Below are positions 13,356 to 63,177 of a DNA stretch of 64,000 nucleotides, in pieces. The DNA comes from Vicugna vicugna (taxonomy: Eukaryota): positions 4,652,001 to 4,716,000 of the forward strand of contig MU058221.1 of assembly GCA_013265495.1 (NCBI GenBank), given 5' to 3'. The notes beneath the pieces are model-generated. The model was not told the origin of the DNA. It made no database searches and saw only the letters and a list, made by a program, of their open reading frames with translations. The first letter of the stretch is position 1; each line of letters opens with the position of its first letter. The position numbers were made by a program, and so were the translations under genes.

Positions 13356-13533
13356 TTACAGGAGGCGTGTCTCTGTTTGGAAGGCCAGCACCAGCACCCA
13401 GAACACAAGGGTCCAGAGAGACCGACAGGAACCGCTGGCCACCACCTGGAGGGGGTGCCCACAGCAAGGGAGCCGCAGCTCGGCAGAGATGTGCCCATCG
13501 AGAACGGGGACCTGGCGCTGAGGGACCGCAGCA
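13356..13533 (-). pseudogene. TRABD2A: TRABD2A terminal exon (exon 7 equivalent), still open, encoding the hydrophobic C-terminal tail
   Basis: Acceptor ttctctttgcccccaag|; AAVPQRQVPVLDGHISAELRLP...SLWTLVFWVLVLAFQTETRLL* vs recalled human DIVPQLQVPVLDRHISTELRLP...SLWTPVFWVLVLAFQTETPLL*. Confidence 0.92.
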
Positions 13534-15496
13534 CTTGGGGGCAAAGAGAAAGGCAGAGTCTCAGGGCACAGAGGGAGCACCTGGATACCCGGAGGCCCCC
13601 AAAGGTCTGCACTGCCTCTTTCCACCTCTCTTCTCCAAAGACAGAGATGCAGCTTAGGGTGGTAACAGATTTCCGGTGTCTTGGCCCTCGTTACGACTGC
13701 TACAAAAAACCAAATGGTGCAGGCCGTAGGACTCGCACCGCGGACAACTCTCCCCTAGCCAGCTGCTTCTGGTTCAGGATTATTAAGACCCTCGAGGTAA
13801 GAAGTGCCAACTCAGATCCACTAATCATCAGCCTCTCGGTAATGGCAGGCAGGGCCCCTCCTCCCAGACCACACACACAGGCACAGCCAAGCCATGAGGA
13901 TTCCTCCCCAGGTCCCTGGCTCTCCCCCTACCCCGGCCTGGGTCTCCTGTGAACACCACGCAGGCGCCCCAGATCCAGACAGTATGAGCTGACGAGCCCG
14001 TGACCTCAGCTCGGCCACCCATAAATGGTCACCTTGAAAGGATGTGGCCCAGGCTATAAAGGTACTAAACAGAGCAGCGTATTCCTCCATCAATGAAGGA
14101 TGCCGGAGCAGCCACCCTGGGTCAGGCACCATGGGCGACATGGACACCAACAGGATCTGTGCCCTGCTCTCCAGGTCATATTTGGCTGCCAGCTTCTGTC
14201 CATTTAAAAATGCAAATCCCACAGCACCTGGATGCCTGCCTCAGACCTTCCAGTGCTTGCTACTTCTCTCAGGCATGAAACTTATAGTCACTCCACCCAG
14301 TGACCTATCTCACTCCTCCTCCTCTTGACCTCCCAGGCTCCAGCCAGAATGACTTCATCCTGGCTCCTTTAACATGATCACTCTCTCCCCACATCAGGCT
14401 TTCACACTGTTCCTTTTGCTTGGAGCGCCTTCCCCTCCTTGTTGAGTTGTTTACACACTCATTCAACATTTATTATTAACCATCTCTGCAGGTTATCAGA
14501 TCCCTGAATCTCCTGATCCAGACTCAGAAGCTCTGTGCATTGGGCTCCACTTTGTCAGGCTTCTACTCCGCATCAGCCCAAAAGTCGCTTCCTCCTGGAA
14601 CATACCTATATGATCGTATGTACATACCTATATGATCGTAAATCTCGGTTGTTTGAAGTCACTGAGTTTATGGTAATGTGTTATAGCAGCAAAAAAATTA
14701 CTACAGCATCCTGAGGAGAGTGTGGGGGAGTGGGGCATGGACTCACTAAACACTCAGGCTCAGCCCAACAGGACCCCCAGCCCTTCCTCTTCTCTGCAGG
14801 GAAGGCAGCTTCACAGCCAGAGCATTTCCGGTACATACCAGCCTACTGATAGGTGGAGGGTAGGGGCTGCGGGTTGCCCACCCCTCACCCCACACACGCA
14901 CCCCTCAGCCTTCCTAATAATACCCGCCTGCCCCAAGACCCAGGGTGCTGGCAGGGCTGCACTGAGCTAGGTGACCGGTTAGCAGCCCTCCCGCCCCCAT
15001 CCACACCAGCCTAACCAGTTCAAGTTCCATATGCTCCGAATCATCCCTCAAGGATTATCACGTGGCTGCCGAGGAGGGGAAAAAGGAAGCAGGTGCCCCC
15101 ACAGTCCTGCCCCGGTCCTCCTCGCCCACCTCTTCACGGTGGGCATCTCCCTCACTCTGGGCCCTTAGGCCCTCATCCCTTCTTCTCCCTGAATAGGAGC
15201 TCCTCTGAAGACTTCGTGCTCCCTCATGACCTCCCCAGGAGCAGGAGGCCAGTTCAGCACTGAAAACTCTTACAGATGCTACCCGCAGGAGGACAGCCTG
15301 TGTGTCAGGCTTCAGAACAGTGGCTACCACTGTACACACCAAACTCCGCAGGGTCGTGGCAGAGGGTGAACCCAGGCCGGAGCAGTGGGGAAAGACAAAC
15401 CCCAGCTCAGCTGGTCAGCCTGGGGCCAGGGCCTGAGAAGTGACCAGGAGACCCAGCCCACCCTGCTTTCCAAGAGAACATAGTCCAGGGAAAGAG

Positions 15497-15887
15497 TGTC
15501 ATTCTAAGTGTAGTAAGCCAGAAAGAGAAAAAAAAATACCATATGATATCACTTATATGTGGAATCTAAAAAAAATGACACAAATGAACTTATTTACAAA
15601 ACAGAAACAGGCTTACAGACATAGAAAACAAACATATGGTTACCGGTGGAGGGGGGCAGGGATAAATTGGAAGTTCAGGATTTGCAGATACAAACTACTA
15701 TATATAAAATAAACAACAAGGTCTACTGTTGTTTATACCACACAGGGAAATATATTCAATATCTTATAATTACCTATAATGAAAAAGAATGTGAAAAGGA
15801 ATATATATATATATAAAACTGAATCAGTATGCTGTACACCAGAGACTAACACAACATAGTAAACTAACTATACTTCAATTTAACAAT
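15497..15887 (+). mobile_element. L1 3' end
   Basis: tcacttatatgtggaatctaaaa...gctgtacaccaga...tacttcaat; TSD gggaaagag at 15488-15496 and 15888-15896. Confidence 0.88.
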
Positions 15888-16775
15888 GGGAAAGAGCCAC
15901 AGATTCCCCCCACTACTACCTTCCCCAAAACCAAGCAGAGAACCACTCAGGGAGGGCTGGGCTCTCCCTCCAGAGCTGAAGGAGAACAGGAGGGAGGGAT
16001 GGATGGAGACATGGGGCAGGATTTCCCCAGTCAAGGAGATGAGGGGAGGGCACTGCAGACAGAGGAAAGAAAGACCATTAGCAGAGGGAGAGAGGCAGCC
16101 ATGGGGACAGAAGGTTTTCTGGTGTCAGAAGCATATCCGTGCTGGGAAAAGGTGGGTCTGGGTGCCAAGGCTTCAGCATGAAGAGGCTGGACTTTGGAAG
16201 AGAGAACAGCAGGAAATCCTGAAGGTTTCTGGCTAAGGACCACTCGCAAGATTAGTCCCATAGAAAGATGGAGAAGAACCAGAGGGTGATGACCTTGGGA
16301 GCAAAGGGGGCAGAGCCAACAAAGATTTTCATGGAGGAAGGTGGGAATTGAGAGGTATTAGGTGAGGGCTTTTGTAACGAGAAGGTTTGGTGGGAAGAAC
16401 CGATGTTCCTGAGACACTGGATGCAGGACACGAAGAGAGGTGGGGGCTGGGACAAGCCTAGGAGGGATCCGACCTTTCCCGCTAAGAGGGGACCCAGAGA
16501 CGCATGGCCCCTGGCATAGAAAGCAGACTCCCAGGGAGGAACCTCTGGAGGGAGGGGATAGAGTAGGCCCCGGCCTGAGATGACGTGAGGTGAAGATGGC
16601 GGTTCGGAGGAGAGAGAGGGCACCTGGAGAAGGGCAGCCATCGGGCGGACACCTCTCCAGCCTCTCGGCAGAGGGCAGCATTTTCCTCCTGGAGGACTCT
16701 CTCTACAGCTGAGGGCTCTGCCAGCAGGGGGCGCCGGTGACCACGCACGGGAGGGGGTGGGACGCGTGGAGGGGG

Positions 16776-17150
16776 TGCTAAGGGCTGACCTGTGTCCCCT
16801 CAACATTCACACGCTGAAGCCCTAACCCCAGACCTCAGAATGCGGCTGTATTTGGAGAAGGACCTTCACAGAGGTGATTAAGTTGAGATGAGGCCCTCAG
16901 CGTGGGCCCTAATCCAGTGTGACTGGCGTCCTTACAAGAGGAGGTTTGGACACACAGAGACACCAAGACTGCGTGTACATCGAGGAGAGGCCACGAGGGG
17001 ACAGTGAGAAGACGGCCGTCTGCAAGCCAGAGGGAGAGGCCTCAGAGAGACCAAACCTGCCGACACCTTGATCCTGGACTTCTAGCCTCCAGAGCCGTGA
17101 GACTGTCGAAGCCACCCAGCCTGTGGTACCTCATCACGGCGGCGGGGGCA
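16776..17150 (+). mobile_element. MLT1-type MaLR solo LTR
   Basis: gggccctaatccagtgtgactggcgtccttacaaga...caccttgatcctggacttctagcctccaga...aagccacccagcctgtggtac. Confidence 0.85.
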
Positions 17151-17773
17151 GGAAGGGTCACCGTGTGCCCACTGGGGCTGGACACGGAGCAGGGGCTAGC
17201 AGGAAGGCCGGCGCGGGGTGGGCAGCATTGCCGCGGGTGGCGGTGGGTCGGGGCCTCCTGAGTTCTTTACAGAAGGGTCCGCAGGGCCAGAGGGTGACTG
17301 TGCATGAAAACAAGACATAAACAGACCTGGGGGGAGGAAACAGCTCAGAGAGAGGGAAGGGGCTTCGCTCCTGCCCCGGGACGGGTCTGACAGGCGCCCC
17401 CTGCACCTCCGGGCCCCTGACCTTACGTCGTAACTGACTCACCACCTGCCTCCCTAAAACTTCGCAGATGCGCAGGTCAAAGGCACTGATCGTTGAGCCT
17501 AATCGCCCTTCCTGGGTCCCAGGACCACGGGGCACCCTTCCCTTCACCTTCCTCTCTGCCCCCAAGCACTGCTGAGGGAAGGCCAGGGTGGCCTCCGCCG
17601 CCCCACGTGCCAGGCCAGGCAACCCACGCCGGACACAGCCCCGGCCACAAGGGGGCGCCCGCGGAGCCCGGGGCCGAGGGTGGCTCGGTGGCGGTGCTGG
17701 GGTCCCTCCGGACACAGCGCACCTCGGCTCTCCGAGCTGCCCCCCAACCCGGATGGAAGCACAGGAAGGTCAC

Positions 17774-17863
17774 GTGTGGACGGGCCGTCCAGCGAGGGTG
17801 CGCTCCACCCACAGCCTCCGCGCTGCGGAGCGTCGAGCACCGTGTGGCTGCCCATGAGATGCT
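17774..17863 (-). pseudogene. TRABD2A: TRABD2A exon 5 remnant with 1-nt deletion
   Basis: ctgcag|...|gtgacc; HLMGSHTVLDAPQRGGC then, after a frameshift, [11 protein letters not shown] vs recalled human [29 protein letters not shown]; 90 nt. Confidence 0.85.
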
Positions 17864-18454
17864 CTGCAGTAAGAAAAACGAGCCGAAATGCGGCAGCTCT
17901 CGTGAGCCCCAAACATACCCCCAGTACACACCCTGGGACCAAGAAATCACCCTGCCAGCCCCCTCCCTGCTGTCCAGCCCGGTAAGTTCAGACGGCTTCC
18001 GCAGTGGGGCCTCCCAGCAGCCCTGCCAGGGAGGCCCGGAGAAAGGGGAACTCTGAGGATCAGAACGGTGCAGCGAGCTGCCCAGAGTCGCACAGCTCAG
18101 GGGACACCAAGTCCCAACCTCCCGCCTCTGAATCCAGCGCTCAGTCCTAATCATTCTCATTTATATAAACCCACCACCTCTGAGACTCCAGCCCCGTTCT
18201 GTCCTGTGTGTACTTTAAAATGCACATTGTAAGAAAACAGTGACTTCACCTGCCTACACTATGAAAGACCGTGGAAGCTTTCAATACACCCTCAAACGCT
18301 GAGCTGTGTGTCTCTTTATCCCTCTACCCCAGCCCCTGCATTTTAATGACAGAAGTGGAGTGATGCTCTCACCTCTTAGAAGATTCAATGAAGTCACTTT
18401 TTCTAGACACTGGAAGAGTCAGATTGAGTTTTAAACAGTATTAAAGGTTTATCT

Positions 18455-18603
18455 GGGGGTGCGGGGAGGGTATAGCTCAGTGGTAGAGCACATGCTTAGC
18501 ATGCATGGGGTCCTGGGTCCAATCCGCAGTACCTCTATTTATATAAATAAGTAGATCGAATAAAATCCCCCCTCAAAAAAAACAACAAAACAAAGGATTT
18601 TTT
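18455..18603 (+). mobile_element. tRNA-derived SINE (camelid vic-1-like)
   Basis: ggggagggtatagctcagtggtagagcacatgcttagcatgca head with A/B boxes; A-rich tail; imperfect TSD taaagg(t)ttatct. Confidence 0.88.
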
Positions 18604-20570
18604 TAAAAGGTTATCTCATAAGATTCTCCCACACAAGCCCGTTGTTCTGGAGATGCTAAAGGGGATGATTTTAACAGGAGGGTGGAGGTGTGATACACCG
18701 AAACTGTGACAGTTGCGGGTGCAACGCAGTGCCTGCAGGTGAGGCTGAAACACTGGGTTCTCTCCCCACTTCCCAGCCTCAGCCTCCCCTCCCTGCCCCT
18801 TCTCCTCCCAGGGGTTTAACAGGTTAACCATCACCCTAGTCAAATACAGAACGGGGTTTCCACCCTCCAAAGTGCTTCTCCTATTTCCAGCAGCCTTGGA
18901 AAGACCTTTCGAGAATCCTCACACTCTTGTGATACAGCTGTCAATTTCCACTTCATGGATAACAGATCTCCTGCTGTTTCCTTGAAATGATGCTCTTTCA
19001 TTTTCAAGTCAAAAGCTTTCATCTTCTCCTTTGTCATCTTTTTTTAATCACGTCATTTAGGTCAGACCCTCCTCTCTGTTTTCCAGAATCTCTTCTCTTC
19101 AGCACACCCCTCCCTTTGCACCAGCAGCCCCTCCACAAAGGCAGCCCTGAATGTGCAAGGTGACCTCCCCGCACCACCATCCTGCTCCACCTTCTAAATG
19201 CCAAACATGACCTATGACCTTTGGCCACTGGGCCACCTGCCCAGCCCTCATTCCACAGGGGCAGGCACATTTCCCATCCTCCCCACCACCCGCAGGGGCC
19301 CTGGGGACAGGACAGGCCTGGAGGAGTCACAAGAAACGCATGAGATACCTGGCCCCTAACAGCTCCATCAGCCCTGCCATCTGCCCCTCTGACTTCCAAA
19401 GCCCCCACCCATGTTAACTTTTTTCTGCTGCTTCAAATTTTAATTTCCCAACTGATCTTGACCTTTCTCCCCACTTCCCCCGCCTCCACCCAGAGTGCAC
19501 GTATGAATCAGCACCACCATAACTCTGCTAGGCCTTCTTTCGTGTATTTCTTGCTTTCCCCTTCCTCTTGCTTGCTTTGCCTTGGTTTGACTTGCTCCCG
19601 CTCTAGACTGTCTAGAAACTCATTGGATCTTCTGACACTTGCAGGGTGACGCTGGATGCAGCCTCTCTGGTCCCCCTCCCCACGCCAGGTGCAGACATTC
19701 CTTTTCAACGCCTATACTCACTTGCCTTTCCTGTGACCCAGATCTGACACACCTGGACAGCATCACTCACACCCACTAGCTCCCTCCTCTCTCCTTCCCA
19801 GTGTCCTCCTGCAGGTGAGGGAGACAACACCCCCCCCATCTCAAAACCTCTGCTGGACTCACTTCCCCATGATCTTAGTGGGGGAGGGACGGAAGCAGTG
19901 GTTTGTCCCATGGGAGGCTCACTGATCAAAGCATAACAAGCATCTGTCCCACCTCTCTCCTGTAGGGGAGCCTGGCCAGCCGCCCCCTCCCCTAAATGGC
20001 CCCCAGGCAAGGCTTGCACTCACTGCACCAGCTCGGCCACACTCACTGCAACACGGCGGGCGGGGTGGAAGCCATGCCTGGAAATGCCGGCATCCTCCCC
20101 AGCCTCTCGTGTGCCACCCTGTACAAACACCATGAACACTTCCCGTTGCATCGCACTCATTTGTTCCTGGAAGCCCCCGAAAGCCGCAGCCAAAGTTTTG
20201 CTCCATCATTTCTCAGGTTACCTAAGCCAGCCGGGAGACTTTCTGACTTGCGCCCCTCCCTTCTCTGAAGGCTGGTTCACACTGCCTGCTGCCTAAGCCA
20301 GGAGGTCACTGCCGAATCCCTAAAGCCTCATCCTTCGACGGGGACCCTGGAATAAACTCTCATCAATGCCCCTCTCCATTCTTAAGTTTCCTAAAGAATA
20401 ACTTTCTCAGCTGCAGCCTCTCATTCAACACCAACATCTGCCCCGTTTTAGTTTTGGAGCCCTTCCTGACCTCCGTCCTTTGTACACAGGATGTCCCGGT
20501 GCCATCAGGCAATGTCCTTATTCTTGCATTTAAATGCGCGCTGAGCTGGGCAGAGGACAGGGGCTCTCAC

Positions 20571-20716
20571 CTGGGAGCTCTCATGGCTGAAGACGACGCA
20601 GCTGAGGTCCCCGCACTTGTAGTGTTATACAAGGTCCTTTGTTGTGCAGGGATCCGAAGGCTGCCTGCTCGCAGGCTCTCCTGCTGCAGGAGGGTCTGGT
20701 TCAAAGCAAAGAGGAC
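20571..20716 (-). pseudogene. TRABD2A: TRABD2A exon 3 remnant with 1-nt deletion and stop in the ancestral frame
   Basis: ctcag|...|gtgag; [22 protein letters not shown](P) then, in another frame, CTTKDLV*HYKCGDLSCVVFSHESSQ vs recalled human [49 protein letters not shown]; 146 nt; TAA at 20625-20627. Confidence 0.93.
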
Positions 20717-22399
20717 CTGAGGGGAGAAAACATATGTCTCTTTTAAGTTCACTGACACAGCGATCATTAGCTACTGTCTTATTTCTTTTGTCCATGTTGG
20801 CAGTAGCCTCAACTCTGCGTAAGGACATGGACGCTGCTGCTAAAAAAGGGGGGGGGACACAAATCCCTGGATGGCGTCCAACGAAGAGGAGGACAGTCCT
20901 GCCCAAGTCAGCCCCCATCGGATGCCTCCTGGGAAAGTGGGTGCCTTGGAACTCTCCCACGACAGTGACCAAGAGGTCAGGAGACCCCGAGAGCTGGTCT
21001 GTGGGGGATGGCTAAAGCTGGGGAGGTGGGGCAGGGAGGCACTGGGACCCACAGGCACACGTCCCTACCGGTTTCAACCACATGAAGGACTGGACAGGCT
21101 ATATTCACAGTATCCACAAGTCTTTTTCCAACCATCAGGGCGGCATTTGGCGACTAAGGGATTCATTAGGTCCATAAGATGTCAATAGTAGTTATCATGA
21201 AAAACAGGGAGTGGGGAATGAAGGCTAAACAAAATCAAGCACGTTTTTATCTTTATGGAACTTCTCAGAGTCTCGATGCACTAATGCGCACCGCGCTGCC
21301 TCTCCCCGAGGCGGGGAGAGCGTGCTGGCTTTCCGAGCTGATTTCAGAGCACATCACAAGAGAAGGGTTGGCTGGAATGTCTTTGGGGGAAAATCCAGAC
21401 TCAAGAAATTTTACAAAGCAGCGGATTCTCCGTGGCACTGGAGAGCTAGGTCAGAGGGGGAAGGCAGGACTCGCATCAGGTGGGAATTGGGGTCGACCAC
21501 CCTCTGCAAGGCTCCTGACAGCACCGGAGATGCTGTGGCATTTTCCCTCTCATTCCCCCAAGTATGGATGCAGACATCTCTATCACCTTTGACAGCTGGC
21601 CCAGTAGTCAGTGTATAGGATAACATCTTTGCTGGAATGTTTCCTCCCCCTTGGCTGAAATGCAGGCAGGCGGGGTTCATATGAGCATTCTGACCATGAG
21701 GTCGTCAACAGGAAGTTTTCGATTGTCCAGTGATAACACATCGCAGGTCTCAAGTCATCAAATGACCCCGTGCAGACCCTCCCCCTTCTTCCTCCTTCCA
21801 TGCTTTCTCACTCTGAGTGGCAAAGAGGCCGGAAGTCTTGTCGACTCGCTTCCCACAGGCCACTGCACACAGGCCTGCCTGCCGCACACCCTCCGTCCAT
21901 GCCACTGCCTGGCTTGGTAACTCTGTCCCTGCTGGGGGGGCTTCAACTAAAGGGGGAGGAGGCAGTTCCCTCTTTGTAAAATCCCCTCCTCTCCTCTCTT
22001 CTCTTTGCATGCCCCCCCACCATCAGAGACACCTCCTCCAGCCTCTCCTGGAGGTCGGCTCCCCAAGAATCTGCAAACCAGCCTCTTCTATCTTGGGATG
22101 AGCCTTCCAGGCCATGCCGTGTTCCCACCCTCCCCACCCCTCCACTGGTGACACGGGCCGACAGAGAAGCAGATACATCCAGGTGCCTGTCTACAAACTG
22201 TGGTCTAAGTGAGGAAACTCGGTCTTCCAGAGAAATGAGCCCCTGGGTTCTAAAGCCATACAGTGAGGACCTATCCACACCACCAGGAATTGCTAAATGA
22301 CTTCCGATCAGCTGGAGGAACAAACCTTTGGAGGAGGGGAGAGGCGGCACTATGGAGCACCTCGCAGGTATGCCACGCCCCAGGCTAAGGTCTCACACA

Positions 22400-22869
22400 T
22401 TCCGTCTCAGTCTAACTCATCCAGTCCAGCTCCCAGTAATCAAGAGAAATAATCATACCTGGTATCTGAGTTGTTCTCCAGGAGGAAGGTCACGGAACTG
22501 TCACCTCACACAATAGCCTGAATCACGAGAAGACCACGCAGTGGACACTTACAGATAAAGAGATCAAAAGAGTGACAACCACTAGCCTCTAAAGAATCAG
22601 CCGCCTGGGGTCACCATGATGCCACTCTGAGTCTTACAAGAAAAATTCTGTTGACTGTTATCAACGCCTTACTGTTTAATCTACGGCTGTACCATCACCC
22701 TGCCCCACCCGCAAGATGAGTTCACGGTTCTGCAGGCACTCACCTGCTGCGAGTCAGTCCCTTCACCCAGCAAAGCAATAAAGCTGCCTCTTCTCTTTTA
22801 TTCTCTAAGACCCTATCTCTGAGTTTCAGTTCGGCTTCACTGGGGGCAGGGGCCAATCTTTCAGCAACA
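22400..22869 (+). mobile_element. ERV-type LTR (5' limit uncertain)
   Basis: AATAAA followed by a U5-like end terminating in ...gcaaca. Confidence 0.55.
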
Positions 22870-22973
22870 CTGCAAGTGTTCTAACTATGGACCTTGGGGG
22901 CTTTAATACTGTGCTGGTTTATAGCCTAACCACTTCTGAGAGGTCTTAAGCATCTTGCAGATTAAAAGCCACC

Positions 22974-23250
22974 ACAGACATAGAAAACAAACTTATAGTT
23001 ACCAGGGGGAGATGGGGGCAGGGAGGGATAAATCGGGAGTTCAAGACTTGTAGATATTAACTACTATATATAAAATAGATAAACAACAAGGACCTACTGT
23101 ATAACACAGGGAACTATATTTAATATCTTGTAGTAACCTATAATGGAAAAGAATATGAAAAGTAATATATATGTATAAATGAATCACTGTGCTGTACACC
23201 AGAAATTAACAGAACACTGTAAATTGACTGTACTTCAATTTTTAAAAAAT
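22974..23250 (+). mobile_element. L1 3' end
   Basis: Same L1 3' UTR motifs as 15497-15887. Confidence 0.88.
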
Positions 23251-23259
23251 TAGTAAAAT

Positions 23260-23380
23260 GGGGGGAGGGTATATAGCTCAGTGGTAGAGCGCATGCCTAG
23301 CATGCACAAGGTCCTGGGTTCAATCCCCAGTACCTCCATTTAAAAAATTAAAAAAATAAACTTAATTACCCCACCACAAA
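23260..23380 (+). mobile_element. vic-1-like SINE inserted in the L1 A-tail
   Basis: tRNA-like head; TSD aaaaatta(g/a)taaaat. Confidence 0.9.
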
Positions 23381-24782
23381 AAAATTAATAAAATAATGTT
23401 AGGGGAAAACAGTTGATATTTTTTATGCTATTACTTGAACTTTCTCACTGAAAGGAATAAAACTATATTTATTTAAAAAAAAATTTAAAAACCCAGCCCA
23501 GGATAAGCCATTGACCACTGGGCCTGCAGCACCCTACTAAGAGATGTGGCAGAAAGGACAGGGTTTTCTTGGCTGGGAAGGGCCCTGGCAGATCCCAAGC
23601 TCCGAACACAGTGCTCGCTATCCGGTCCATGAAACGCATCCAGCAAAAGCCAGAGTTAGGCTGAGGGAAGCAACTGAAGGGACAGCTTGGCCCAGGGCAT
23701 CCAAGGAGACAGCCACCCCAGCTTCCCCGTCAGTGGCTTAGCAGAGACCCGGGGGAGCCTCTGGTGCAGTTTCTGTTTAAGGGGGAAAGCTCTTAGATTT
23801 CTGGGAGAAAGGCCAGGCACGGGGTCCTGAGATAGGCCTATCTGAGTGAGGCCCTCCTGGGGTTTCCTCAGAGCCTAACACCCCCTGTGACTCTGAGCCC
23901 TGGTTAGCTTTCCCCTTGCACACAGCCAAGGAGGTGGGTCTCCGCCTCCTCCAGACAGCAGCCCTTTGTCAGCTCTGCCGCCCAGACCTCGGCTCACAGT
24001 CCCCGTCGGGGGCCGCCCAAGCTCCGTCCAGCCAGGGGCAGGGCCCCGGAGGCACTGCGGGGGGTGCCTTCTTGGAGGCAAAACTTTGGGGCAAACCAAG
24101 GGTGGCCATCCGTGTCGCCCCTGCACAGGGGAGGCCACCACCACCAGGTCTCTGCAAGAAGTCTCCACATCCTGGAGCAGGGGACAGGGTGCACATGAGG
24201 GCCTCATAAAAATGATACACTGCCCCAAACTTGCCCCAGCTAAAGCCACGGGAGGGCCAGACCCAGCTTGCTCAGAAATCTGCTGTGGCATCTCCGAAGC
24301 ATTAACAACCGTCGATCATTCTTCCATGACTGACTGTCCTGGCTATGCCTGACGGAGTCTGAGCCAGTCGAACGAATGCAGGGTTTCAGGATGTGACTCA
24401 CGGAGAAGCACATACCTCTGAAACATCTCTCATTTGGTTAAGTGGACCCCAGAGGCCTCTTCCGGGAAGTTCACCCTGATGGGTGTTGTCACCGACCTAA
24501 CCACCTGCGTTTCAGGGTCAGTACTAAGTGATCGCATGTGGGGCACAAGCGCTGTTCCCGGGCAGCCAGAGAGCCCAGGGCCAGCGGGCAGCCTGCCAGG
24601 CCAGGGGCCGGGGCAAAGGGGAACCGGGGCAAAGGAGTGGGCGTGGGCACCCGGCCAAGTGTCCCCAGTGTCCCCAGACATGCATGCTGCCCCCACACCT
24701 CCCCCACAGACAACTCCCCGCCACCCACTGCCTCTTGTCCCCATTCAGCTCCTTTCTTTGGGGTTTCTGCTAACATCTCACG

Positions 24783-25197
24783 TGTTACATCAGTCTGCTA
24801 GGACTGTCTTAACAAGCAGAGTGACTTAAACAACAGAAATGTATTGTCACACAATTCTGGAAGCTGGAAGTCCAAAATGAAGGTGTCAGCAGTGTCACGC
24901 TCTCTCTGAAGGTGTCAGGGAAAAATCTGTTCTAAGTCTCTCTCCTAGCTTCTGGTGGTTTCTCAGTCTGTGGCAGCGTAACTCCAACATTTACATGGCT
25001 TTTTCCTTGTGTGCCTCTCTGCGACGTAATTTCCTCTTTTTATAAGGACACAGTCATATTGGGTTCGTGCCCAGACAACGATCTCACCTTAAACCGACCA
25101 TCTGCAAAGACTCTTTCCAAATAAGGTCTCATTCAAAGGTCTTGGGGGTTGGTACTTCAATGTAAGAATCTGGGGACCCAAGTCAACTCATCAAACA
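24783..25197 (-). mobile_element. MLT1-type MaLR solo LTR
   Basis: gacttaaacaacagaaatgtatt...ggaagtccaaaatgaaggtgtcagcag...tataaggacac. Confidence 0.85.
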
Positions 25198-29216: not shown

Positions 29217-29299
29217 TTAAACCAGCGACGTACAGGTAACTGCAACCACTTAGGTGGTGGAAGCAAAGCAAAACAAACTTTCATCAAATGTCTTCAGCG

Positions 29300-29500: not shown

Positions 29501-29867
29501 AGAAGCAGGATAGAAGAACAGCGAGACTGGCAGCAGGACTGACCCTGACCTCTCCGAGGTGTCTAAAGCCAACTTCTCCTAAGGCAAGGTCTACCTGCTC
29601 AGGACCCCTGCACCCCTAAGGCAGGGAGAGGCAGTATACCCACGTCTCCTAAATTCTCCATTCTAGTTATAACAGCACCATTCAGAAGATTCAAAAACAG
29701 CCTCAAATTCACCCTCCATGTCTGTTCAGTAACGGCCCTCACCTAGATCACTGCGTCAAGTCAATTTCCACCTCCGGGGAAAAAAAATCCACAAAACCAT
29801 CCTCTTATTTCAGACATTTCTCTCCTGCTAGGTGTTTCAGAAGTGCCAAATCACTGTGCTCTTAAGG

Positions 29868-30180
29868 AGACGATTAGGATTAAATGAGGTCTAAAGGGTG
29901 GGGCCCTGATCCAATGGGATTAGTGTCTTTGTAAGAAGAGGAAGAGACACCAGAGTGTTCTCTCTCTCTCTCTCCCTCTTCCCACCGGAAAAAACGCCAT
30001 GTGAGGACACAGGAAGAAGGCAGCCATCTGCAAACTGAGGAGAGAGGCCTGATCAGAAACCAGCCCAGCCAGCACTTTGATCCTGTACTGTGAGCCTCCA
30101 GAACTGCAAGGAAATCTACCATTGTTGTTTCAGCCACACAGCGTGCGGTATCCTGCAATGGCAGCCCGAGCAGACCAGCA
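29868..30180 (+). mobile_element. MLT1-type MaLR LTR (partial)
   Basis: gggccctgatccaatgggattagtgtc...gccatgtgaggacacag...agcctccagaactg. Confidence 0.82.
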
Positions 30181-30395
30181 CACCTGTCCCCACCTCCCCA
30201 AACCCTACAGGACGCCGGGGTCACAATAAGAATAAACAGCCATCTCTCCACCTCCAAGGCCCAGCGGAAGCTGCAGCCTCTGCTGAGCACTCCCGGACTG
30301 TCTCAGCCCCTTGCTAGGAGTTTCCATTCTCATCTCTGGTGCCCTAAAAGGTCATCTTCCTTTAAATTGTTTAAAGTTCTGGCAAGACAAGCTTC

Positions 30396-31023
30396 AAGGG
30401 AAATAGACTATGAAGAATCATATGAAGACCCAAGTGAAAAACACAGGAAAGCTAACTGCACACACTTAACCACATCCGGACCTCTTACTGGGGCTAATTC
30501 GGCATAAGTGGTAAGCAGCTCACCGAATGACTCCACACTCTTGCTCCTGCCAGCTAAGGAATGTCGCTCACCATCCAGCCCTGTATGAATTGAGTCATTA
30601 GCCACGGCAGCCACTGACCTTTAATACACCCTGAAAGGAGCTCAGGGTGGAGATCAGAAGTGAGGCCCTCTGTGCTCTGGGAAACCTGGCAGAACAGACC
30701 TTCAGACAGATAGATATTTTCAAGAGAAATGGTTTAAGAACATGGATTCTTGCATCTTCCCATACTCGAAAAAGCACTAGAATCATCAGCAGAGAGATCC
30801 ATGCTTTGTGACCAGCAGCAACCTTCTCCCCGAGACATGTGCTTGGTCGCACGTACCCCCATGGTCAAAATCACATATATTCTGCCCACCCCACGCCCCG
30901 CCCCTGCGAGCAGTTCCTCTGAGCTACCTGAGAGGCTGCCTACCAGGTGACAGTTCGCAGTGAGCCCCCAAATAAAACTGAAACTCACAGCCCTCATGTG
31001 TGTACTTTTTATTTCAATCGACA
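30396..31023 (+). mobile_element. ERV1-class solo LTR
   Basis: AATAAA near the 3' end, ending ...tcaatcgaca; possible 4-bp TSD cttc. Confidence 0.7.
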
Positions 31024-32264
31024 CTTCCCAAGAGTCTAACCTGTTTCTGGCTTTTCTCTTATTCTGCGTGTTCTCCAATAATCGTGATCAGCATCCAAGG
31101 CAGGTTTCCCTTTGCACGACAAACTATATGATGCTCACGATCAAGTCCACACAGAGAGCAACAATAAATGTCAAACATCCCCCTCCCCAGCTGTCGCACT
31201 CCCCAGACCGCCAGTGTCTCCCTCCTGAGGGTCCAGGGTCCTGGGCCAACGCAACTGAAGCTCTTAGCCCAGAGGCTGACTCCGACACCCCTGCGGGAGT
31301 GACCAGCGCCTGGGCCCCACCCAGCCCACGCTCAGCTGCCAGGTGCACATCCTGCAGCCCTGCTCTTTGCGCTTTCAATTCCCCTGGAAAATAGCCGTGA
31401 TGCCCCGCTGCCCTCAGAGTTCACGGTAATTTCCCCACCTCACACTCCAGCCCTCTCCAGCCTCATTGCCCAGCTCACTCCCACACAGCCCAGCCCACCG
31501 CACTGCGGGCCCACCTGCAATATGCCCCTCCGTTTCCTCTGCCTGTGTACATCCCAGCCTTTCCTTGAAAATCAGCTCCAATTCTAAAGTGTTTAATAAA
31601 GTAAGCTGAAGAACATCTGGAAAATAATATTGTCATGCCTTCCCCCCATCAATTACATTCTTTGGCGGCCATGTCAGCACCATCTCCCCTGGTGGAGGCC
31701 GGGGCCAGAGTCCACCCCACCCGCAGCGGGTCACCTCAACTGCCAGCAGCTGAGGGCCTGGAAGGCACCTTCATGTTCAGGCTCTTCGATCTTCGTGGTG
31801 CTCCCAAAGTTCAGGGCTGGTTTGGAGAGAAGCTCTAAACCTGCACCACAGAACTGGGGATCGTTCCTAGAAAGGAAGGGGAGGTTTTCCTAGCGCACCC
31901 CTCCTCGCACACCCCTCGGCCCTCACAAGGCATGCTTGACTTGCCCTCTGCTCCGTCTGGGGTCACCCGTCAGGAAGCTGGGAGGGGCACGCTGCCCGTA
32001 TGATGTGATCAGCCTCCCTGCCTCGGTGGCAGGAACGAAGTCACTCTGCGAGGATTAACAAACGAGAACAGTCAGGGGAAAGATGGAAACAAATCAACAG
32101 AGTCGACGCTGTGGTTCTGGGTGTTTAAGACAGTGTGGCGCGATTGGCCAACAGCCATCTTCAGACAGTGCCCTCCAAGGGGAGACATCACCTGTGCACG
32201 GCGCTGAGCCAGGCTTGCTAAAAAAAAATTTTTTTTTAAAAGGTAAATCAAGATCCTTGCTCTC

Positions 32265-32398
32265 AGCGAGGAGGGTGTAGCTCAAGTAGTAGAGCACATG
32301 CTTAGCATGCATGAGGTCCTGGGTTCAACCCCCAGTGCCTCTTCCAAAAGTAAATAAATAAACCTAATTACCTACCCCCTCAAATTAATTAATATATA
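32265..32398 (+). mobile_element. vic-1-like SINE
   Basis: Perfect 15-bp TSD aagatccttgctctc at 32250-32264 and 32399-32413. Confidence 0.93.
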
Positions 32399-32660
32399 AA
32401 GATCCTTGCTCTCTGGGAGTTTTTGTGCTAGTTCAAAAGCTGGAATAAACACCTGGAAGTTAAACACCAATATAAGAATTAAATCAACATAAAACCGATC
32501 ATTCAACAGCCACCCAAAGGTAGCAAAAGAGCAAACTGCCCAGTGGTGGCCTGGACAACAGATGCCATTAATACAGGAGAAAGGGGAGTCTCTGGCAGCC
32601 TGAGATAATTTCTGGAGGCAATACCAGGACAGGGACCAGAGTGGTGACCAGGAATAGAGA

Positions 32661-32830
32661 CTGGTAGTTCTCAAACTTGCGTGTGCATCGAATCACCTGG
32701 AAGGCTGGGTAGACTGAAGATTACCAAGCCCCACCCCAGAGTTTCTAATTCGGGAAGTGTGGGATGGAGCCCAAAATTCTGCGTGACTAACAGTTCCCAG
32801 GTGATGCTGATGCTGCTCTGAGAACCTCTG
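32661..32830. mobile_element. MER5A-type MITE
   Basis: gttctcaaactt...gaatcacctgg...cccaccccagagtttct...ttcccaggtgatgctgatgctgct...tgagaacc. Confidence 0.8.
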
Positions 32831-34790
32831 GTTTAGCCCGAACATTCCACATCAGATGTAGGAAATGGGGGCACGCTAATGTCACCCCGCATTTTACGAT
32901 TCCAGGCCCTTGCTGAAGCTGGCGCCAGAGCCCTGCTCACTCCCCTTGGGGAGGGAGGACATCACAGGAGCATCAGGAGGGAAAGAGGAAAACAGACAGA
33001 GAAGAGGTACCATGGTGCCCACAGCGTGACATGACGCAGCCTCCGCCCCCAGAGTCCAGGACAGCCTCTGGCTCCATCCCTGGGCCACGCAGCGCCTCTA
33101 CCTGCACAGTCCTCAGCCAGCTCCTGGCTGTAACAGCTGGCCCCAGTCCCACCCGGCTCCTCCCTCTTCCCCTTCCCTCCCTCCACCAAGCTGGGAAGGC
33201 TCTGCCTCCCCTAATCCTGCTGGACAGGTGGACTTCTGGAGGAGGGACAGAGAGCCCTCCCTCCCCTCCTAAAGAGAAACACTGAGAGTTATTCCTCAAG
33301 TTGAGGGCGCAGGGCTGATCCACCAAGGAGAGGTGGCTGCTCGGGTTTCAAAGGACTCTCTATTCCCAGCCTGGTTCACCAGGATGTGAGTCAGGGACAT
33401 GGGGCCTAAATGAGGCTGCAGCATCCCTTGAAATGCGCCTCTCATGACCCCAAGGGCAGCCAAGCAGGGTCAGATCCAGGTGAAGCCAGAACCCCAGCAG
33501 CACATGTGGGATCCATGCACATGTACAAAAGCAGCTATTTTTTTTAAATACCTTTTTTTTTAACTTCACTTTGGGCTTTAGAGGGGCCGGCCAGAGCCAG
33601 GGGCAGGCAGGACCAATGCCTGCTTTGTCTTTGAATCCTGAAAATGAGAAACAGAGTGCCCAGCCCATGCTGAGTGCTTAAGAGACATGTCCCAAATAAA
33701 GACGAGCAATAAAAGAAAAGATGACTCAAGTCCCAAGCAGGCCTGTGCCCAGGGGGAAGCACAGAGCTGAAGTCTGTGGCGTCTGAACATCACAGCCAGC
33801 CACCGGCACACGGTTGGTTTCGTTTCCCATTTCTGGTCAAAAAAATTAGAAATGAAAGGGATGGCCAAGGTGAAGGAAGGCTGCGGAAGATTGCCCCTGG
33901 GAGAGCTAACGGCCCAGCCCAGACTCCCGATCTATGAAATCAGGGCCCACCTACAACGCCTGTGAGGATGCTCCATGTGAAGCAGGGACAAGTTCAGTCA
34001 AGAAGGAGATGTCGCAGCTCCTGAGGCATTTACAGGAACGGCAGCACTTCACCCCACTGTGCATAAGAACCCAAAAATATGAGATGACAATATTGGGAAA
34101 GAATGTTGAGAAAGAAAAAAAAAAGCAAAAAGATGAATTTTAAGATGCCAATCTATATCTACACAGCTATTAGAAAGGCTGTTTTCAACGCTTGTAAGTA
34201 ATCAGCACACACTCATGGTTGTATCCCAGTTTAGCCGAGGTATCCACAAGTTCACTGGTTTCCCATTGCTCTTTCCAAGCTCTGCCCACTGAAATGGGAC
34301 TTTCACACATCCTACCGGCCCAACACATTCAGCAGATATCCAACAACCGCCAGCGAGCCCCTCCCACGTGCCAGACGCCACCTTAGGAGCTGGCGTACAA
34401 GGACCAAGAGAGCGCAGCCCAGCCTCAGAGCATCTCGCACCTTTGGGGGAGGCAGTCATCAGGTCTCCAGCAAAGGCTTCCACGGGGATGCTGAGAGGAC
34501 AGCAGAGGGTCAACCCTGGGCTTGGGAGGGCTTCACAGAGGAAATAATATGTAAGCTGAGTCAGCCGCCAGCCAGAGGGACAACCCGGGGAGGCTTCCCA
34601 GCGGAGGGGACAGCATGTGCCTACACAGGGCTCGCCTGCCTCCTTCACAAGAAGGACGTTCTTGTTCACAAGCAAATCTGCCCACATTGTAGGAACCAGT
34701 TCCCTTTCCAAGAGTTCACATACTTTTCTCTAGGCCTTTATTTTAAAACAAGCCTAGGAAGGAAAAGTGAAGTGTCAAGATCTCCATCTT

Positions 34791-34867
34791 TTTTAATTGA
34801 AGTATAGTCGATTTACAATGTTGTACAAGTTTCTGGTGTATGGCAAAGTGATTCAGTTCCATATATA

Positions 34868-34898
<31 letters not shown>

Positions 34899-35147
34899 GT
34901 ATATACATATCTGAAAAAGTATATATATACACACAATCTTTCAGATTCTTTTCCATTATAGGTTATTACTAGATACTGAATACAGTTCCCTGTGATCTAC
35001 AGTAGGACCTTGTTGCTACAGCAGTGTGTATATTTGTTAATCTCAAACTCCTAATTTATCCCGCCCCATCTTTCTCCTTTGGCAATCACAGGTGTGTTTT
35101 CTATGTTAGTTAAACTGTTTCCGTTTTGTAAATCACTTCATTTGTCC
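34791..35147 (-). mobile_element. L1 3' end with internal (AT)n
   Basis: Perfect 15-bp TSD caagatctccatctt at 34776-34790 and 35148-35162. Confidence 0.92.
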
Positions 35148-37289
35148 CAAGATCTCCATCTTCAAGCACATTCTATCTCAATTACGGGAAATGCGGTCAA
35201 TTTCAAAGATAAGATCGTTTGCTTTTATTGGCATTTATGACTAGGGAGCTGCAGGAAGTCAGACTGTAAATCTGGCAGGTGGCAGCGCTCAGAGGCAGAA
35301 CTAGATTAGAGGATGAGAGATCAGGGAGGCCAGGCCAGCCCTGCACAGTCCCGCTGAGACCCCAGGCAGTGCACTGGGGTCTTTCCAACAGGAAACTGTC
35401 CCCACCCGCTTCTGCTCTCTGATCTGCCTTCACTCTTGCCATGGCCTCTGGGGACAGGGAACTGCCAGCCTCGTGGGGTTGTTCTGAAGATCCAACCCAC
35501 TGATGGGGAACATGCAGAGATCTGCAAAGTACAAAGCAAGGAACTGTGCAGCAGCATTCCTGCGATCAGCCTCCCCTGTGCCTAGCAAGTCGGCCCCCTC
35601 CTCAAAGAATCCGACCCTCTTTCTCTTTCTCAGGCTGGCAGGCACCTCCAAACCCCCTACTCCTCCAGCATTCACCAACAACAGCCAAGGACGGAGAGCT
35701 GGAACATCTTTCCAGGAATTCATGCTGCCTCCCGGCCAGATCCCCATCTCCTGCGGGCAGGGGTTGCTTCCACCACTCAGCTCTGCCCTGGACCTTCCCA
35801 GCTGTTTCTTCTGTGAAATGACTGACCCAGCTAAAGAGAACTTTCTCCAAAAAAGAAAGATCCCCATCTTCCCTAACACCCCAAAACCGTGACTCAAGAA
35901 ATGAACTTTTGCATGAGACCTGCAAGTGGACACTCGACCCAACCATTGTTCAAGGTTTCACTTTGTGCTCCCCCTAAAAAAAGGTTTTCAGCCAAAAAGA
36001 GTGAGTTATTAGGGTCCTGGGGTAAAGAGAGCAGGAAGTGGTAGCGACACCTACTTCTGGAAAGTACAGTATTAAGAATGACAGCTGAAAGGGCAAACAG
36101 GAAGTATGTCAGTGCCATCCACTGGCAAGAGTGATCAATTACAAAGACACAATTCTTTGTCAACAGCGATTCGGATAAGAACACTAACGCATCATCTAAA
36201 GAGCACCTTTGGGTTTGCAAAGGACTTTTACATCCAACTACCTGCCTCTTGGGACACCGGGAGTCCAGAGATGAAGTATTGCATGTAGAAGGCAGAGGGC
36301 AATCCCAGACCGGTTGGCTGCATTCGTATTAGCTCTCGGACCCCAAACCTAAATGTGACTGGGTCCCAAGGACAGACTCCAACACCAAGGGGACTAGAGT
36401 TGTCTCAAATTCCCACCCCACCCGACTCTGACATCCAGTCCATCCCTGGGGAGGCAAGCAGGAGAACCCGTGGTTAGATGGTCATTCCCGTCAGTCCTCG
36501 GAGGCAGCAGGCAACGCCCCCAAGTCTGTAGCCTGTGCATAGATGTCTGGCCAGGGGAACAGCATTTAGAAAGGTCGCTTCTCTAAGGAACCCTACATCT
36601 TTAATGGGAACTCACCTATGCAGATGAGGAGGGAAGTGAGGTGAGCCTCACAGTGGAGGCTCCAGCTCTGAGCTCATGTGCTTTCTTCACGCAGGGAATG
36701 GCAATGTGTAGGACCAAGCAGGTCTTTGGGTGAAAAAGATCAGGAGACATGACCTGGCTCCATCCCGCAGGGTCAGGGTGGTGTCCCCTCTGAGATGATA
36801 GATCAGATCCATGGACAGGAAGCAGGCATTCTTTCCTGGATGTCAAATCAGAATAGCCAAAGGGAACAATTAGTTCTCAGATAGCAGGGAAGAGGTGAAG
36901 GGGGAGAGAGAAGGGGGCAAAATAATGGAATCATGAAGGATCTGGAACAGAGAGAGGCCATCTGTTCTCTCTCCAGGCAGACTTACAGACTCCTTCAACC
37001 AACTTATCCCACAGAAGCTTACGGAGAATCTACTATGTGCCGGCATGGTGCTAAGTCCTAGGACACAGTGATGAGTGCCCTTGAGAAGCTGGTCACTTGT
37101 ATTATAAAGACCTCAGGTTCTAGGGAGCAAAACCCAGGTTACACCTTATCTTTTTCATGTAACACTATGCTCAACAGGAATTCAGTGGGTGTGTTGATTA
37201 AATGAATATAGGAATGGGTGGCTAGGAGGGTCTCTTCTGATGAGCTCACAACCTGGTCCTTGAAGTTTAGGGCCAGTTGGGCAGGGATG

Positions 37290-38465
37290 GTTTAATATTG
37301 AGAAATCTACAGATAGACGTCAAACAAAGAAAGCCATACGATTAAGGCATCATGGAAATTTGCTAACAGAGTAAATCTTAAGAGTTCTCATCACGAGGGA
37401 AGAAACAACTTCTAGCAATAGATGGTCACAGATGTTAACTAGACGTATTGTGGTGATCATTTCACAACATATCCAAGTATCGAATCATTATGTTATACGT
37501 CTGAAACGAATGTAATGTTACATGTCAATTATATCTCAATTTTAAAAGACATCACAACAGATCACAACAGAAATGAGAAAAAAGATCTTGAGGAAACTCA
37601 ACAACTGCTTCTGATAAAATTCCCAGTAAAACAAACTGAAGGATGTTTCATTCACATCATAAAGACTAGTCAACCACTAGCATCCTGTTTATGGTGAACT
37701 ATCAAAGGCTTTCTCATTCAAGTTAAGTAAAAGAAGGATGCCTGCTCTTCCCACCACTACTTAATGCTGTTCTAGGCATCCCAGCCAACACATTAGGACA
37801 AGAAAAAGAAATGAGACAAACTGTGGAAAGATGGACACAAAATAGCTGTTTATCAATGATCTGTCTGGTCATTAAGAAAGCAAGAGAATCAACTAACATT
37901 GTCAGAATACAAGATTTCAACTAAGTGGTTAAATTAATATATAAAAATTAGTAACCAGATGGAAAATATAACAAGAAAATAGAGTTTTTTTAATTGAAGT
38001 ACAGTCAATTACAATCTGTCAATTTCTGGTGTGCAGCACAATGTCCCAGTCATGCACAGACATACATATATTTGTTTCCATATTTTTTGAGAAAAGTCTT
38101 TATAGCATGAAGCTTACATTAAAAACAATGAATAAACTTATGAATTGAACAAAATCTGGATCAAGACAGCTACAAAACAAAAAAGAGGACTAAGCTGAAC
38201 AGAAAGGATAACATGAGAAAAAATCTATTTTTCCCAAATTGACCTAGAAATTAACAAAATCATAATCGAAATGATTTCAAGAATCAGCAAGCAAAGTGAC
38301 ATCATATCACTTTTAATGTGGCACAAAGTGACATTAATAATGTAGTATTGACACAGAAATAGGCAAACAGGGTCAGTGAAACAAAATGGAAAGTCCAGAA
38401 ACAGGGTGAGCATGTGTGTGCATGTGCGCGCAGCGGTGAAGGTTAAAAATAAAGGCCATCATAAA
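37290..38465 (+). mobile_element. Nested old L1M fragments (ORF2 and 3' UTR pieces), with a short younger L1 tail on the minus strand at ~37988-38088
   Basis: Degenerate ORF2-like segments (aaggatgcctgctcttcccaccactact, aaagcaagagaatcaac) and a 3' UTR piece. Confidence 0.65.
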
Positions 38466-38639
38466 TCAACAGTGAGAAGCTGACCCAGCCCAATTACACC
38501 AGAAGGGGCAGCCATGGGCATTTAGAGTCCCCAGAGACGACCTGGCAAGTGGGCAAAGGGCACAGCGGTGGGACTGATCACAGGCAGCCCAGCCTGTAAG
38601 TGGACCTGCCTCGGACACGCCTCCAGAAACCGTCTGGAT

Positions 38640-39133
38640 CAGCGGTCAGTCAACTTTCAGATACAGTGCGAGCTAACTTTCAATAAGTAGTCACCTTAAA
38701 AAAAAAAAAAAGAAACAGGTAAAAATAAATGTAATGATGTATTTTTTGAATCCACTACATCCAAAGTCTTATCATCTCAACATGTGGTCAATACAAAAAG
38801 TTATTCAAGATATATTTTACATTCTTTTTTTCATACTCAGTCTTTGAAATCTGTTGTGTATTTCACACTCACAGCACATCTCAATTTGGACACTAAATTT
38901 TCACCAACAATACTTGATCAACTCCCTAAAATTTGTAGTTGAAAAAGGAGATTCACATGCCCAAGTTGTTCCAAACATACTTAGAAGTTTTCCAATAAAT
39001 GAACCAAGTATCAGTTTTTAAACTTTAATTCCAATTAAGTAAAATTAAGAGTTCACTTCCTGAGTCCCACTAGCCACCATTCAAGGGCTCTGCGGGCAAC
39101 CTTACGTGGCCAGTCAGTAGTGCATTGGACAGC
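38640..39133. mobile_element. hAT-Charlie non-autonomous DNA transposon (MER33/Charlie5-like)
   Basis: tctttgaaatctgttgtgtatttcacactcacagcacatctcaatttggac...cactagccac...ttggacagc. Confidence 0.7.
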
Positions 39134-41158
39134 TTAGGTCCAGAACCTTCTGCTGCAACTCAAAACTCCAGGGTCTCACACCCGCTCATCTTCTATCAAA
39201 ATGAAAAACGATCTTCCCTACTGAGAAGGCAGGCATCCACCACCACCCCAAACCTCAGCTGCAGTTTTACAATTCTACAGAGCAGTGAACCATGGACAAC
39301 TACACCCAGCAACATGAGTGAATCACAAAGCTAACACTGAACAAAGGGGTCTAGAGCAGGTCCACCAGCATCTTCATAGAAGTAATCAGAGTCCTCGAGT
39401 TATTTAAATACTACTTCAGAATGCTAAGTGGAAACCATAACTGTACGGGAAAATGATTGCCAAGGCTAATTAAGCGATCAGTTGTCTCACTGGTGGTCAG
39501 AATTAGATCAAGCCGGTAGAAAAACACTGATTAGGCAGTAATCAAAAGCTGAGGTTGACAGTTACGGCTCTGGTTAACTTAAAATGGGTAACGAAATAAT
39601 TATCACCTATAAATGCAATCGGGTTGCAAGAGGTGGCCTTCCGAACATAGGTTTAGTTTGGTTTATTTGCTCATCTCAGTGGGAAGAGTTGTTGGTGATC
39701 AAAGGGGTCCTGGATGATGGGGACCACTGACCTATGCAAGCCATCTGGTCCCACAAGGTCCAAACAACCTACCAAAGGGCTTCTACACAGTTTCCAACTG
39801 GGAGACAGGGCAAGGAGCTGAAATGTTATTATTAAACCCATGGGCACCTGACTCATTGTCAACTATCAGGAGACCATCATATTAAACAAATGCATTCCCA
39901 CTGGGGAGCAAGGGGGTGTTTCTTTCGGGTTTGGTTTTGGTTTGTTTTTACCCAAATACAGTTGATCTCCCTAACGTTCCATCCTACCTCAACATATCCG
40001 CACTTCTCTTGAGAAACAAAGTCTATCCCTGGTGCACATTCTCCTCTCCAGCCACGCGCCTCCTGCCTCTAGGGAGGCGGGGAGAGCCTCGGCGTGTCCG
40101 CAGCCCAGAGCGCCTCAGGAACACAGCGCAGCTCCCGAGCAATCCCCCTTGCGCCAGGAATAGCTCGATGAGGTCACCCTCTCTTTGTTGTGTAGTTAGG
40201 ACGATGAATAAAATCACGGATAAAGGTGGGCGCGGCCCCAGAAGCTGCGAAGGGGACCCCTGAACTCGGACACCCAGCAACCCCGGGCGCACAGCCTAGG
40301 ATCACTTTCCCCAGAGCCAGGGATCCATAGAGATACGACCCACCAATGCAAATTCACAAAATTCAACTTCCACTGCGCTCAGAAGAGGGGGACTTCAGAC
40401 GGCAGAAAATTCCGAGCCTAAGAAAATTGATCAGGAAAAGTTAACACTCGTCTGGAAAGAGATCCAGCCTCGGAGACGCGAGACCTGCCAGGTTTCTGCT
40501 CGGCTTCTACTCCTATAGGGCTGGGTGGACGGACCCAGCAGGTCACTGGGCCTCTCTCACCTCAGCTCCCCTCACCCCGAAACGCTGATGTCAACGTCTA
40601 AAGGAGCGTCTTGAGGCTGTCAGACCTGGTCACTCCGCGAATGCGCTCTGTGACCTGGCGCACAAGGTCCATCTCTGGGCTTCGGTTTCCCAAGTCAAAC
40701 AAGGAAAATGGCTTTAGCGCCCCTCAAATACTCAGGCACTGAATAGACGAAGGTTAAATCAAGCAGCTGCAGGAAGCTCTTATTTCGATAAGCGCAGGAG
40801 AAAAGAAACGCTAGGGCAGAGCGAGCAGAACAAACTTGCAAAGTAAACGTGCCCAAGTTCCGGCCCCACTCAGTCCCCGTGGGTTCGCCCCCCGAATGCC
40901 CGGGAAGACCCCTCCCGGGGACCCTCCGGCTGGCAGGCGGCGAGGGCTGGGGGACGGGGTCCCGCGTGGCCGGAGGGCTGCGCCCCGCCCGGAAGGGGGA
41001 CCTGAGGGCGCGGCGCGACGAGCGAGCGAGAAAGCGCCGCCGTGCGGGGAAGCCCGGCCCGCAGAGTCGGCTCGGGGTCCGAGTGCGCGGGGCTCGGCGG
41101 GGCTGGGAAGGTGCCACCACCGCGCCCGGAGGTGCCAGGAGGCAGCCGCGCGCCTTAC

Positions 41159-41236
41159 CCGGGCGGGAGCTCGCCGCTGGGGGGAGGGGGGTGGGCGGGG
41201 CGCCGCGCGCAGGGGCTGCGCCCCCGGGCAGGAGGC
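41159..41236 (-). pseudogene. TRABD2A: 3' part of TRABD2A exon 1; the start codon region falls in the assembly gap
   Basis: LLPGGAAPARGAP and GELPP followed by a gtaagg donor, vs recalled human LLPTGAASRRGAP..CELKPQ; lies inside a CpG island. Confidence 0.7.

Positions 41237-63000: not shown

Positions 63001-63177
<177 letters not shown>

Follow-up and report, generated by a model that had tools for sequence, protein, structure and literature searches.

A 64-kb window of the vicugna (Vicugna vicugna) genome, taken from contig MU058221.1, contains the remains of TRABD2A, the gene encoding the protease TIKI1, on the minus strand between DNAH6 and TMSB10. TRABD2A is very probably a unitary pseudogene here, with a decay that likely began early on the camelid stem and was likely independent of the loss in mouse-like rodents. 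The original prediction, made from the same DNA, held that TIKI1 had been inactivated as a protease by two frameshifts and a stop codon. The absence of exons 2, 4, and 6 altogether makes the case stronger than was argued there. All coordinates are positions in the window, and lesions, exons, and absences were read from the assembly sequence. Exon numbers and reference lengths were deduced from splice sites in the window and from the isoform boundaries that the proteins show.

Ten full-length mammalian TIKI1 proteins give tblastn matches in exons 1, 3, 5, and 7 only. In a frameshift-aware profile scan with 14 placental rows, exon 3 scores 186 (control maximum 40), exon 5 scores 65 (control maximum 39), and exon 7 scores 174 (control maximum 39). 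The surviving parts and their lesions, in order of transcription, are as follows.

41237..41427, a run of N in which the start codon and the 5′ portion of exon 1 likely lie.
41159..41236, minus strand, 3′ part of exon 1 (signal-peptide region, residues ~13-36), followed by a donor GT at 41158-41157.
20571..20716, minus strand, exon 3 remnant of 146 nucleotides (nt; reference 147 nt, or 49 codons) with intact AG/GT splice sites, found by tblastn and profile.
20649..20651, minus strand, 1-nt deletion in exon 3 at codon 246/247, which fits the GGG; the tblastn frame switches at ~20651.
20625..20627, minus strand, TAA replacing Lys254 in the ancestral frame; Lys254 is invariant in 18/18 aligned TIKI1 proteins.
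17774..17863, minus strand, exon 5 remnant of 90 nt (reference 91 nt) that keeps the His332 codon, found by profile; it beat 40/40 shuffles.
13356..13533, minus strand, coding part of exon 7 (178 nt), which has lost 6 nt in frame, stays open as far as the native stop, and encodes a hydrophobic C-terminal tail.

The reference length of exon 3 is supported by database isoforms that skip it. Comparison of P0001 with the full-length form shows the loss of exactly residues 224-272, or 147 nt. All three lesions named in the original prediction are present: the missing base at the GGG of exon 3, the TAA in place of a lysine codon, and the base missing from exon 5, placed there near 17805-17812 and here at codon 349, near 17810. 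The TAA lies downstream of the exon 3 deletion, though in the ancestral frame. Whether a ribosome would reach it is set by the length of exon 1, which abuts the N gap. The visible part of exon 1 is identical at 11 of the 13 called codons of residues 14-26, and its score of 43 was reached by 0/40 shuffles. As assembled, exon 1 is 7 nt over the ancestral frame, a low-confidence reading in poly-C adjoining the gap.

The window contains no N between 13356 and 41236, and three intervals in this region lack the expected exon, as judged by tblastn, profile, and simulation.

20717..41158, minus strand, gap-free interval without exon 2, which would carry residues 37-223 and with them most of the TraB domain.
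17864..20570, minus strand, gap-free interval without exon 4 (residues 273-330).
13534..17773, minus strand, gap-free interval without exon 6 (residues 362-447).

None of the ten full-length orthologues or 327 fetched proteins gives a tblastn match to exons 2, 4, or 6. Their best profile scores are 54, 38, and 35, compared with controls of 31-46, and each was reached in 2/40 shuffles. The value for exon 2 is out of a possible 970. That for exon 4 is the best anywhere in the window, and it and that for exon 6 are at background level. The sensitivity of the scan was measured on exons decayed in simulation by 0.15 or 0.30 substitutions per site plus indels, with a score above the null maximum counted as success. 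Exon 2 was recovered in 40/40 cases, exon 4 in 38/40, and exon 6 in 37/40 (total 115/120), and the simulated exon 2 scored 188-564.

A complete TraB domain is not present. In rhinoceros TIKI1, PF01963 of Pfam spans residues 43-351, and the missing exons 2 and 4 would encode 181 + 58 = 239 of these 309. The TraB superfamily is described in a passage of PMC6254334 as sharing a conserved motif of two His and two Glu. In a Pfam scan, 0/3 window pieces gave a match. The invariant residues H60, E87, and E161 fall in the absent exon 2, and only the H332 codon remains. These four are presumably the TIKI1 positions of the His/Glu motif. No splice path rebuilds the TraB domain, so that no Wnt-cleaving enzyme would be expected from the locus.

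One segment bears some likeness to exon 2.

20725..20880, minus strand, just upstream of exon 3, weak likeness to exon 2 residues 45-97; 17/50 identical, with frameshifts and a stop.

Its score of 54 was reached by 5/1104 and 1/368 shuffles, a single-test p of ~0.005 before correction for the 11 segments scanned. We rejected the segment as an exon 2 remnant, as the score is far below those of simulated decay and the segment overlaps sequence that is intronic in a gray whale model. It is probably a chance match rather than an old fragment, and it cannot code. A search for direct repeats at the deletions found no pair that clearly explains them; repeats of at least 40 nt resemble interspersed elements. 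An AlphaFold model of rhinoceros TIKI1, built from an 18-row alignment, has a mean predicted local distance difference test score (pLDDT) of 34.7 and is unusable for mapping the lost exons. A sequence search found no solved TIKI structure.

Two of the surviving exons have changed far more than their counterparts. We compared exons 3 and 5, read in the ancestral frame, with a consensus of 27 placental orthologues. Nine of 47 codons are changed in exon 3 and 13 of 28 in exon 5, together 22/75 (29%). Other placentals differ on average at 1.7/49 codons (maximum 6) in exon 3 and 1.4/29 (maximum 5) in exon 5, or 3.9% when pooled. The excess of amino-acid change is roughly sevenfold, with a binomial p of 7e-14 that ignores relatedness. 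At the amino-acid level, these figures indicate relaxed selection on the remains. By simulation, 22/75 changes correspond to ~0.13-0.17 substitutions per site (plausible range ~0.07-0.25).

A dromedary gene model, KAB1256905.1 ('Metalloprotease TIKI1'), is also broken. It has 168 residues and, like the window, no TraB domain. Its first five residues match the end of the window exon 3 in the shifted frame. The model retains a damaged exon 6, whereas the window has none. It also has the initial half of exon 7 in the wrong frame, and a 10-nt difference, with the 10 nt missing in dromedary, restores the frame. The last 30 residues contain seven departures from the consensus, of which four are common to the window and dromedary, two are found only in the window, and one only in dromedary. 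The four shared derived residues are at positions 480, 484, 487, and 492. Two of them occur in 0/27 other placentals, and at each of the other two positions a single species has a change, to the same residue or to a different one. These shared residues bear out the earlier assignment of the DNA to a camelid.

Because the dromedary model is also broken and four derived residues are common to both, the decay likely began on the camelid stem. The window and the dromedary model differ at 8/55 codons, or ~0.03 substitutions per site per branch. By this measure the decay would be around four to five times older than the split between the two, a rough figure drawn from small numbers and different exons. 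Exon 6 appears to have been lost only after the split from Old World camels, because the dromedary model still has it. Together with the 8/55 differing codons, the exon 6 of the model makes a dromedary origin of the window improbable.

The position of the locus and the identity of its neighbours bear on whether the broken gene could be a dead copy. Two anchors flank it.

2800..7620, plus strand, three late DNAH6 exons, open, located by protein matches; the left syntenic anchor.
63016..63421, plus strand, TMSB10, with two open coding exons (63016-63115 and 63393-63421); the right anchor.

The remains lie on the opposite strand to DNAH6, and the order DNAH6-TRABD2A-TMSB10 is the human gene order given in a table of PMC10742694. 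Three exon-bearing DNAH6 frames match DNAH6 chains with E values of 3e-30, 1e-44, and 8e-27 and are unbroken, these three exons being those tested. The beta-thymosin gene at 63016-63421 is intact and is called TMSB10 by position. The flanks are thus clean as far as they were tested, as had been claimed. The surviving exons, the C-terminal exon included, resemble TIKI1, while TIKI2-type sequences (P0204, P0240) diverge from the window in exon 3. In addition, a horse TIKI1 model runs on into the antisense of the window DNAH6 exon at 7538-7347. Read-through TIKI1 models of whale and bat match intron pieces at 17646-17560, 16742-16677, 16218-15954, and 13652-13534 on the minus strand. As these models match surviving intron pieces, the introns are orthologous, with the exons excised from between them. 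Judged by sequence and position, the locus is the TRABD2A/TIKI1 orthologue by descent, at its ancestral position.

An intact TRABD2A elsewhere in the genome, with decay confined to the syntenic copy, is highly improbable. Representatives of protein clusters can hide members, which would leave room for such a gene, but the locus occupies the ancestral position and no TraB-bearing camelid TIKI1 is among the matches listed (4 of 4, 120 of 976, and 120 of 262). A search with the window exon 7 peptide likewise returned no full-length camelid protein (4 matches among 29 candidates).

A working TRABD2A in the animal, hidden by a scaffold that dropped exons and miscalled bases, is extremely unlikely. 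The scaffold is of draft quality and contains two N gaps, the one next to exon 1 and a second:

47699-48056, a run of N upstream of TRABD2A and outside its exons.

A published screen of 58 mammals did not flag camelids, which is also in keeping with an artefact. The artefact would require three exon drop-outs in gap-free DNA together with two indels and a stop. It would leave the 22/75 changes at conserved sites unexplained, as well as a separately broken dromedary model with common derived residues, and the DNAH6 and TMSB10 exons tested on either side are free of lesions.

Several observations weigh against the reading of TRABD2A as a unitary pseudogene that began to decay on the camelid stem. 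Camels are represented by a single automatic gene model, and none of the frameshifts is individually shown to be common to both species. The single-base lesions and deletion junctions rest on one assembly; 14 DNA runs from 6 studies, belonging to three closely related organisms, contain 0.81-0.84 of 923 sampled words, a value that fits a camelid, likely a South American one, but would be equal if the assembly had dropped exons. The absences from protein lists are weak evidence, because the lists cover 15 of the 143 proteins in the largest cluster and because pig TRABD2A is named in a passage of PMC5796098, with a sixth intron, yet is not among the matches listed. The segment at 20880-20725 counts against the absence of exon 2. 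Every splice site examined persists, as do the open exon 7 and an AATAAA. Finally, Turakhia et al. 2020 (PMC7498332) list erosion of TRABD2A, in the part of the paper and its tables consulted, for jerboa, vole, two hamsters, mouse, and rat only, and their 58-mammal set included alpaca and wild Bactrian camel. Their rule requires all transcripts to be eroded in at least two species, and the authors call their strategy conservative. That a camelid loss went uncalled is mild evidence against a clade-wide loss.

The persistence of these signals raises the question of whether the ruin has been put to new use. Two further features bear on it.

40001..41000, CpG-rich stretch just downstream of exon 1, with observed/expected CpG of 0.69-0.73.
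12675..12680, minus strand, AATAAA, a candidate polyadenylation signal by sequence motif, 0.7 kb past the stop.

With exon 1 in the ancestral phase, exons 3, 5, and 7 would join into one open frame of 137 codons that ends at the native stop; taken together, the two 1-nt deletions and the missing exon 4 leave the frame unshifted. The product would contain 23 ancestral residues of exon 3, ~45 foreign residues, the last part of exon 5, and the hydrophobic tail. A remodelled gene, in which exons 1-3-5-7 encode a short non-catalytic membrane-anchored protein (~170 residues) or a functional RNA under selection, is very unlikely, although this frame, the splice sites, the CpG-rich 5′ region, and the AATAAA all persist. 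Restoration of frame has a chance of ~1 in 3, and stops are scarce in these GC-rich exons whichever frame is read. If exon 1 has its assembled length (+7 nt), splicing of exon 1 to exon 3 brings the TAA into frame 57 visible codons on, and the frame stops there. The open frame is not common to the dromedary model, which lacks 10 nt of exon 7 and uses exon 6, and the tail is altered at conserved positions. In three runs recorded as RNA and a further three guessed to be so, 0.15-0.22 of the sampled words are present, which is no evidence of expression or of species. The open frame is likely due to chance. The narrower proposal, a new protein of ~170 residues that combines the old signal peptide and membrane-anchor tail with ~45 novel residues and no protease core, has only a slight chance of being right. 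If true, it would be a cell-surface micro-protein specific to South American camelids, born from a dying Wnt inhibitor.

A neutral course of decay would account for the pseudogene. Selection on the TIKI1 protease would have lapsed first, point changes and 1-nt deletions would then have built up neutrally, and intragenic deletions would later have removed exons. Any transcript would end at the exon 3 TAA, given the assembled exon 1, or yield a short non-catalytic product. Other Wnt antagonists that cover the function, with TRABD2B as one candidate, are the likely reason why the loss was tolerated.

TIKI1 is described as needed for the head to form in Xenopus. TIKI proteins are described in passages of PMC13263348 and PMC11237130 as membrane-anchored proteases that cleave the Wnt N terminus, and the first of these reports that Tiki2-null mice, which are without any Tiki gene, are only partly perinatal-lethal. 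Buffering by TRABD2B is possible but may therefore not be needed. Five rabbit founders with edited TIKI1 are described in PMC4230364; three died within three days and two were apparently normal. Three of the five were biallelic, though the passage does not identify them. A role of TIKI1 in degradation of the Gag protein of human immunodeficiency virus 1 (HIV-1) in resting T cells is mentioned in part of a review (PMC12488699).

Two side observations concern other parts of the window. The product of the right anchor ends ...EKQAK (63393-63421, plus strand) and resembles bovine thymosin beta-9 (PDB 1hj0, 41 residues). We take it that the window TMSB10 stops earlier than the human form and that the thymosin beta-9 type is usual in even-toed ungulates. 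A short tRNA-like interspersed repeat occurs in three copies (18471-18582, 23272-23383, and 32277-32388) that are 63-79% alike. It is presumably the camelid short interspersed element vic-1. An entry in SINEBase names vic-1 in camels.

Full-length TIKI1 models are found in hippo, baleen whales, perissodactyls (horse), carnivores, bats, primates, and lagomorphs (rabbit, pika). No ruminant, pig, or rodent TIKI1 is among the matches listed, which may reflect clustering and is uninformative; Bos mutus P0204 and two rodent matches, considered as TIKI1, proved to be TIKI2-type. Toothed-whale models (among P0310, P0326, P0196, P0002, and P0318) are short: the longest finless porpoise model among the matches listed has 311 residues and starts at exon 4, the white-beaked dolphin 'TIKI1-like' models have 172-202 residues, and a beluga isoform has 230. 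Toothed whales may represent a further loss. Models of giant pangolin and large flying fox (among P0245, P0251, P0246, P0045, P0051, and P0140) look frameshifted or short, and those of manatee, dugong, and humpback are flagged LOW QUALITY. Decay of TIKI1 may be under way in several placental lineages. If the other broken models are confirmed in genomes, TIKI1 would have been lost repeatedly in placentals, and one could ask which function frees it, early Wnt antagonism or the HIV-1 Gag role.

We found no report of a camelid TIKI1 loss in full-text searches of the literature or in the supplements of PMC6760925, PMC5865188, PMC6386725, and PMC7498332; subscription papers, bioRxiv supplements, and TOGA/Zoonomia tables lie outside this scope and may list one. 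By itself, the locus is an ordinary pseudogene, a new case of a known kind of gene loss. It would be a second natural TIKI1 knockout and would end the idea that the absence is confined to rodents.

Compared with intact mammalian TIKI1 genes carrying PF01963, such as those of rhinoceros (XP_058406798.1), right whale (XP_061066928.1), and hippo (XP_057598483.1), the window keeps part of exon 1 and exons 3, 5, and 7, in the same order, on the same strand, and with the same DNAH6 and TMSB10 neighbours. It differs from them in the lack of exons 2, 4, and 6, and in two frameshifts and one stop. The paralogue TRABD2B/TIKI2 belongs to the same family, and cleavage of the Wnt N terminus is reported for it in a passage of PMC13263348. 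In contrast to TRABD2B, the window has TIKI1-type residues in exon 3 and the neighbours of TRABD2A. The closest parallel is the loss of Tiki1 in mouse-like rodents, which are said to keep only Tiki2 in the parts of PMC13263348 and PMC11237130 consulted. The same gene is affected with the same outcome, namely no functional TIKI1 at the orthologous locus. However, the lineage is a different one, and four exons are still recognisable in the window. Placed on the standard mammal tree, the loss in camelids counts as separate from that in rodents. Because hippo, baleen whales, horse, carnivores, and rabbit keep full-length frames, the camelid loss was likely an event of its own, as originally proposed.

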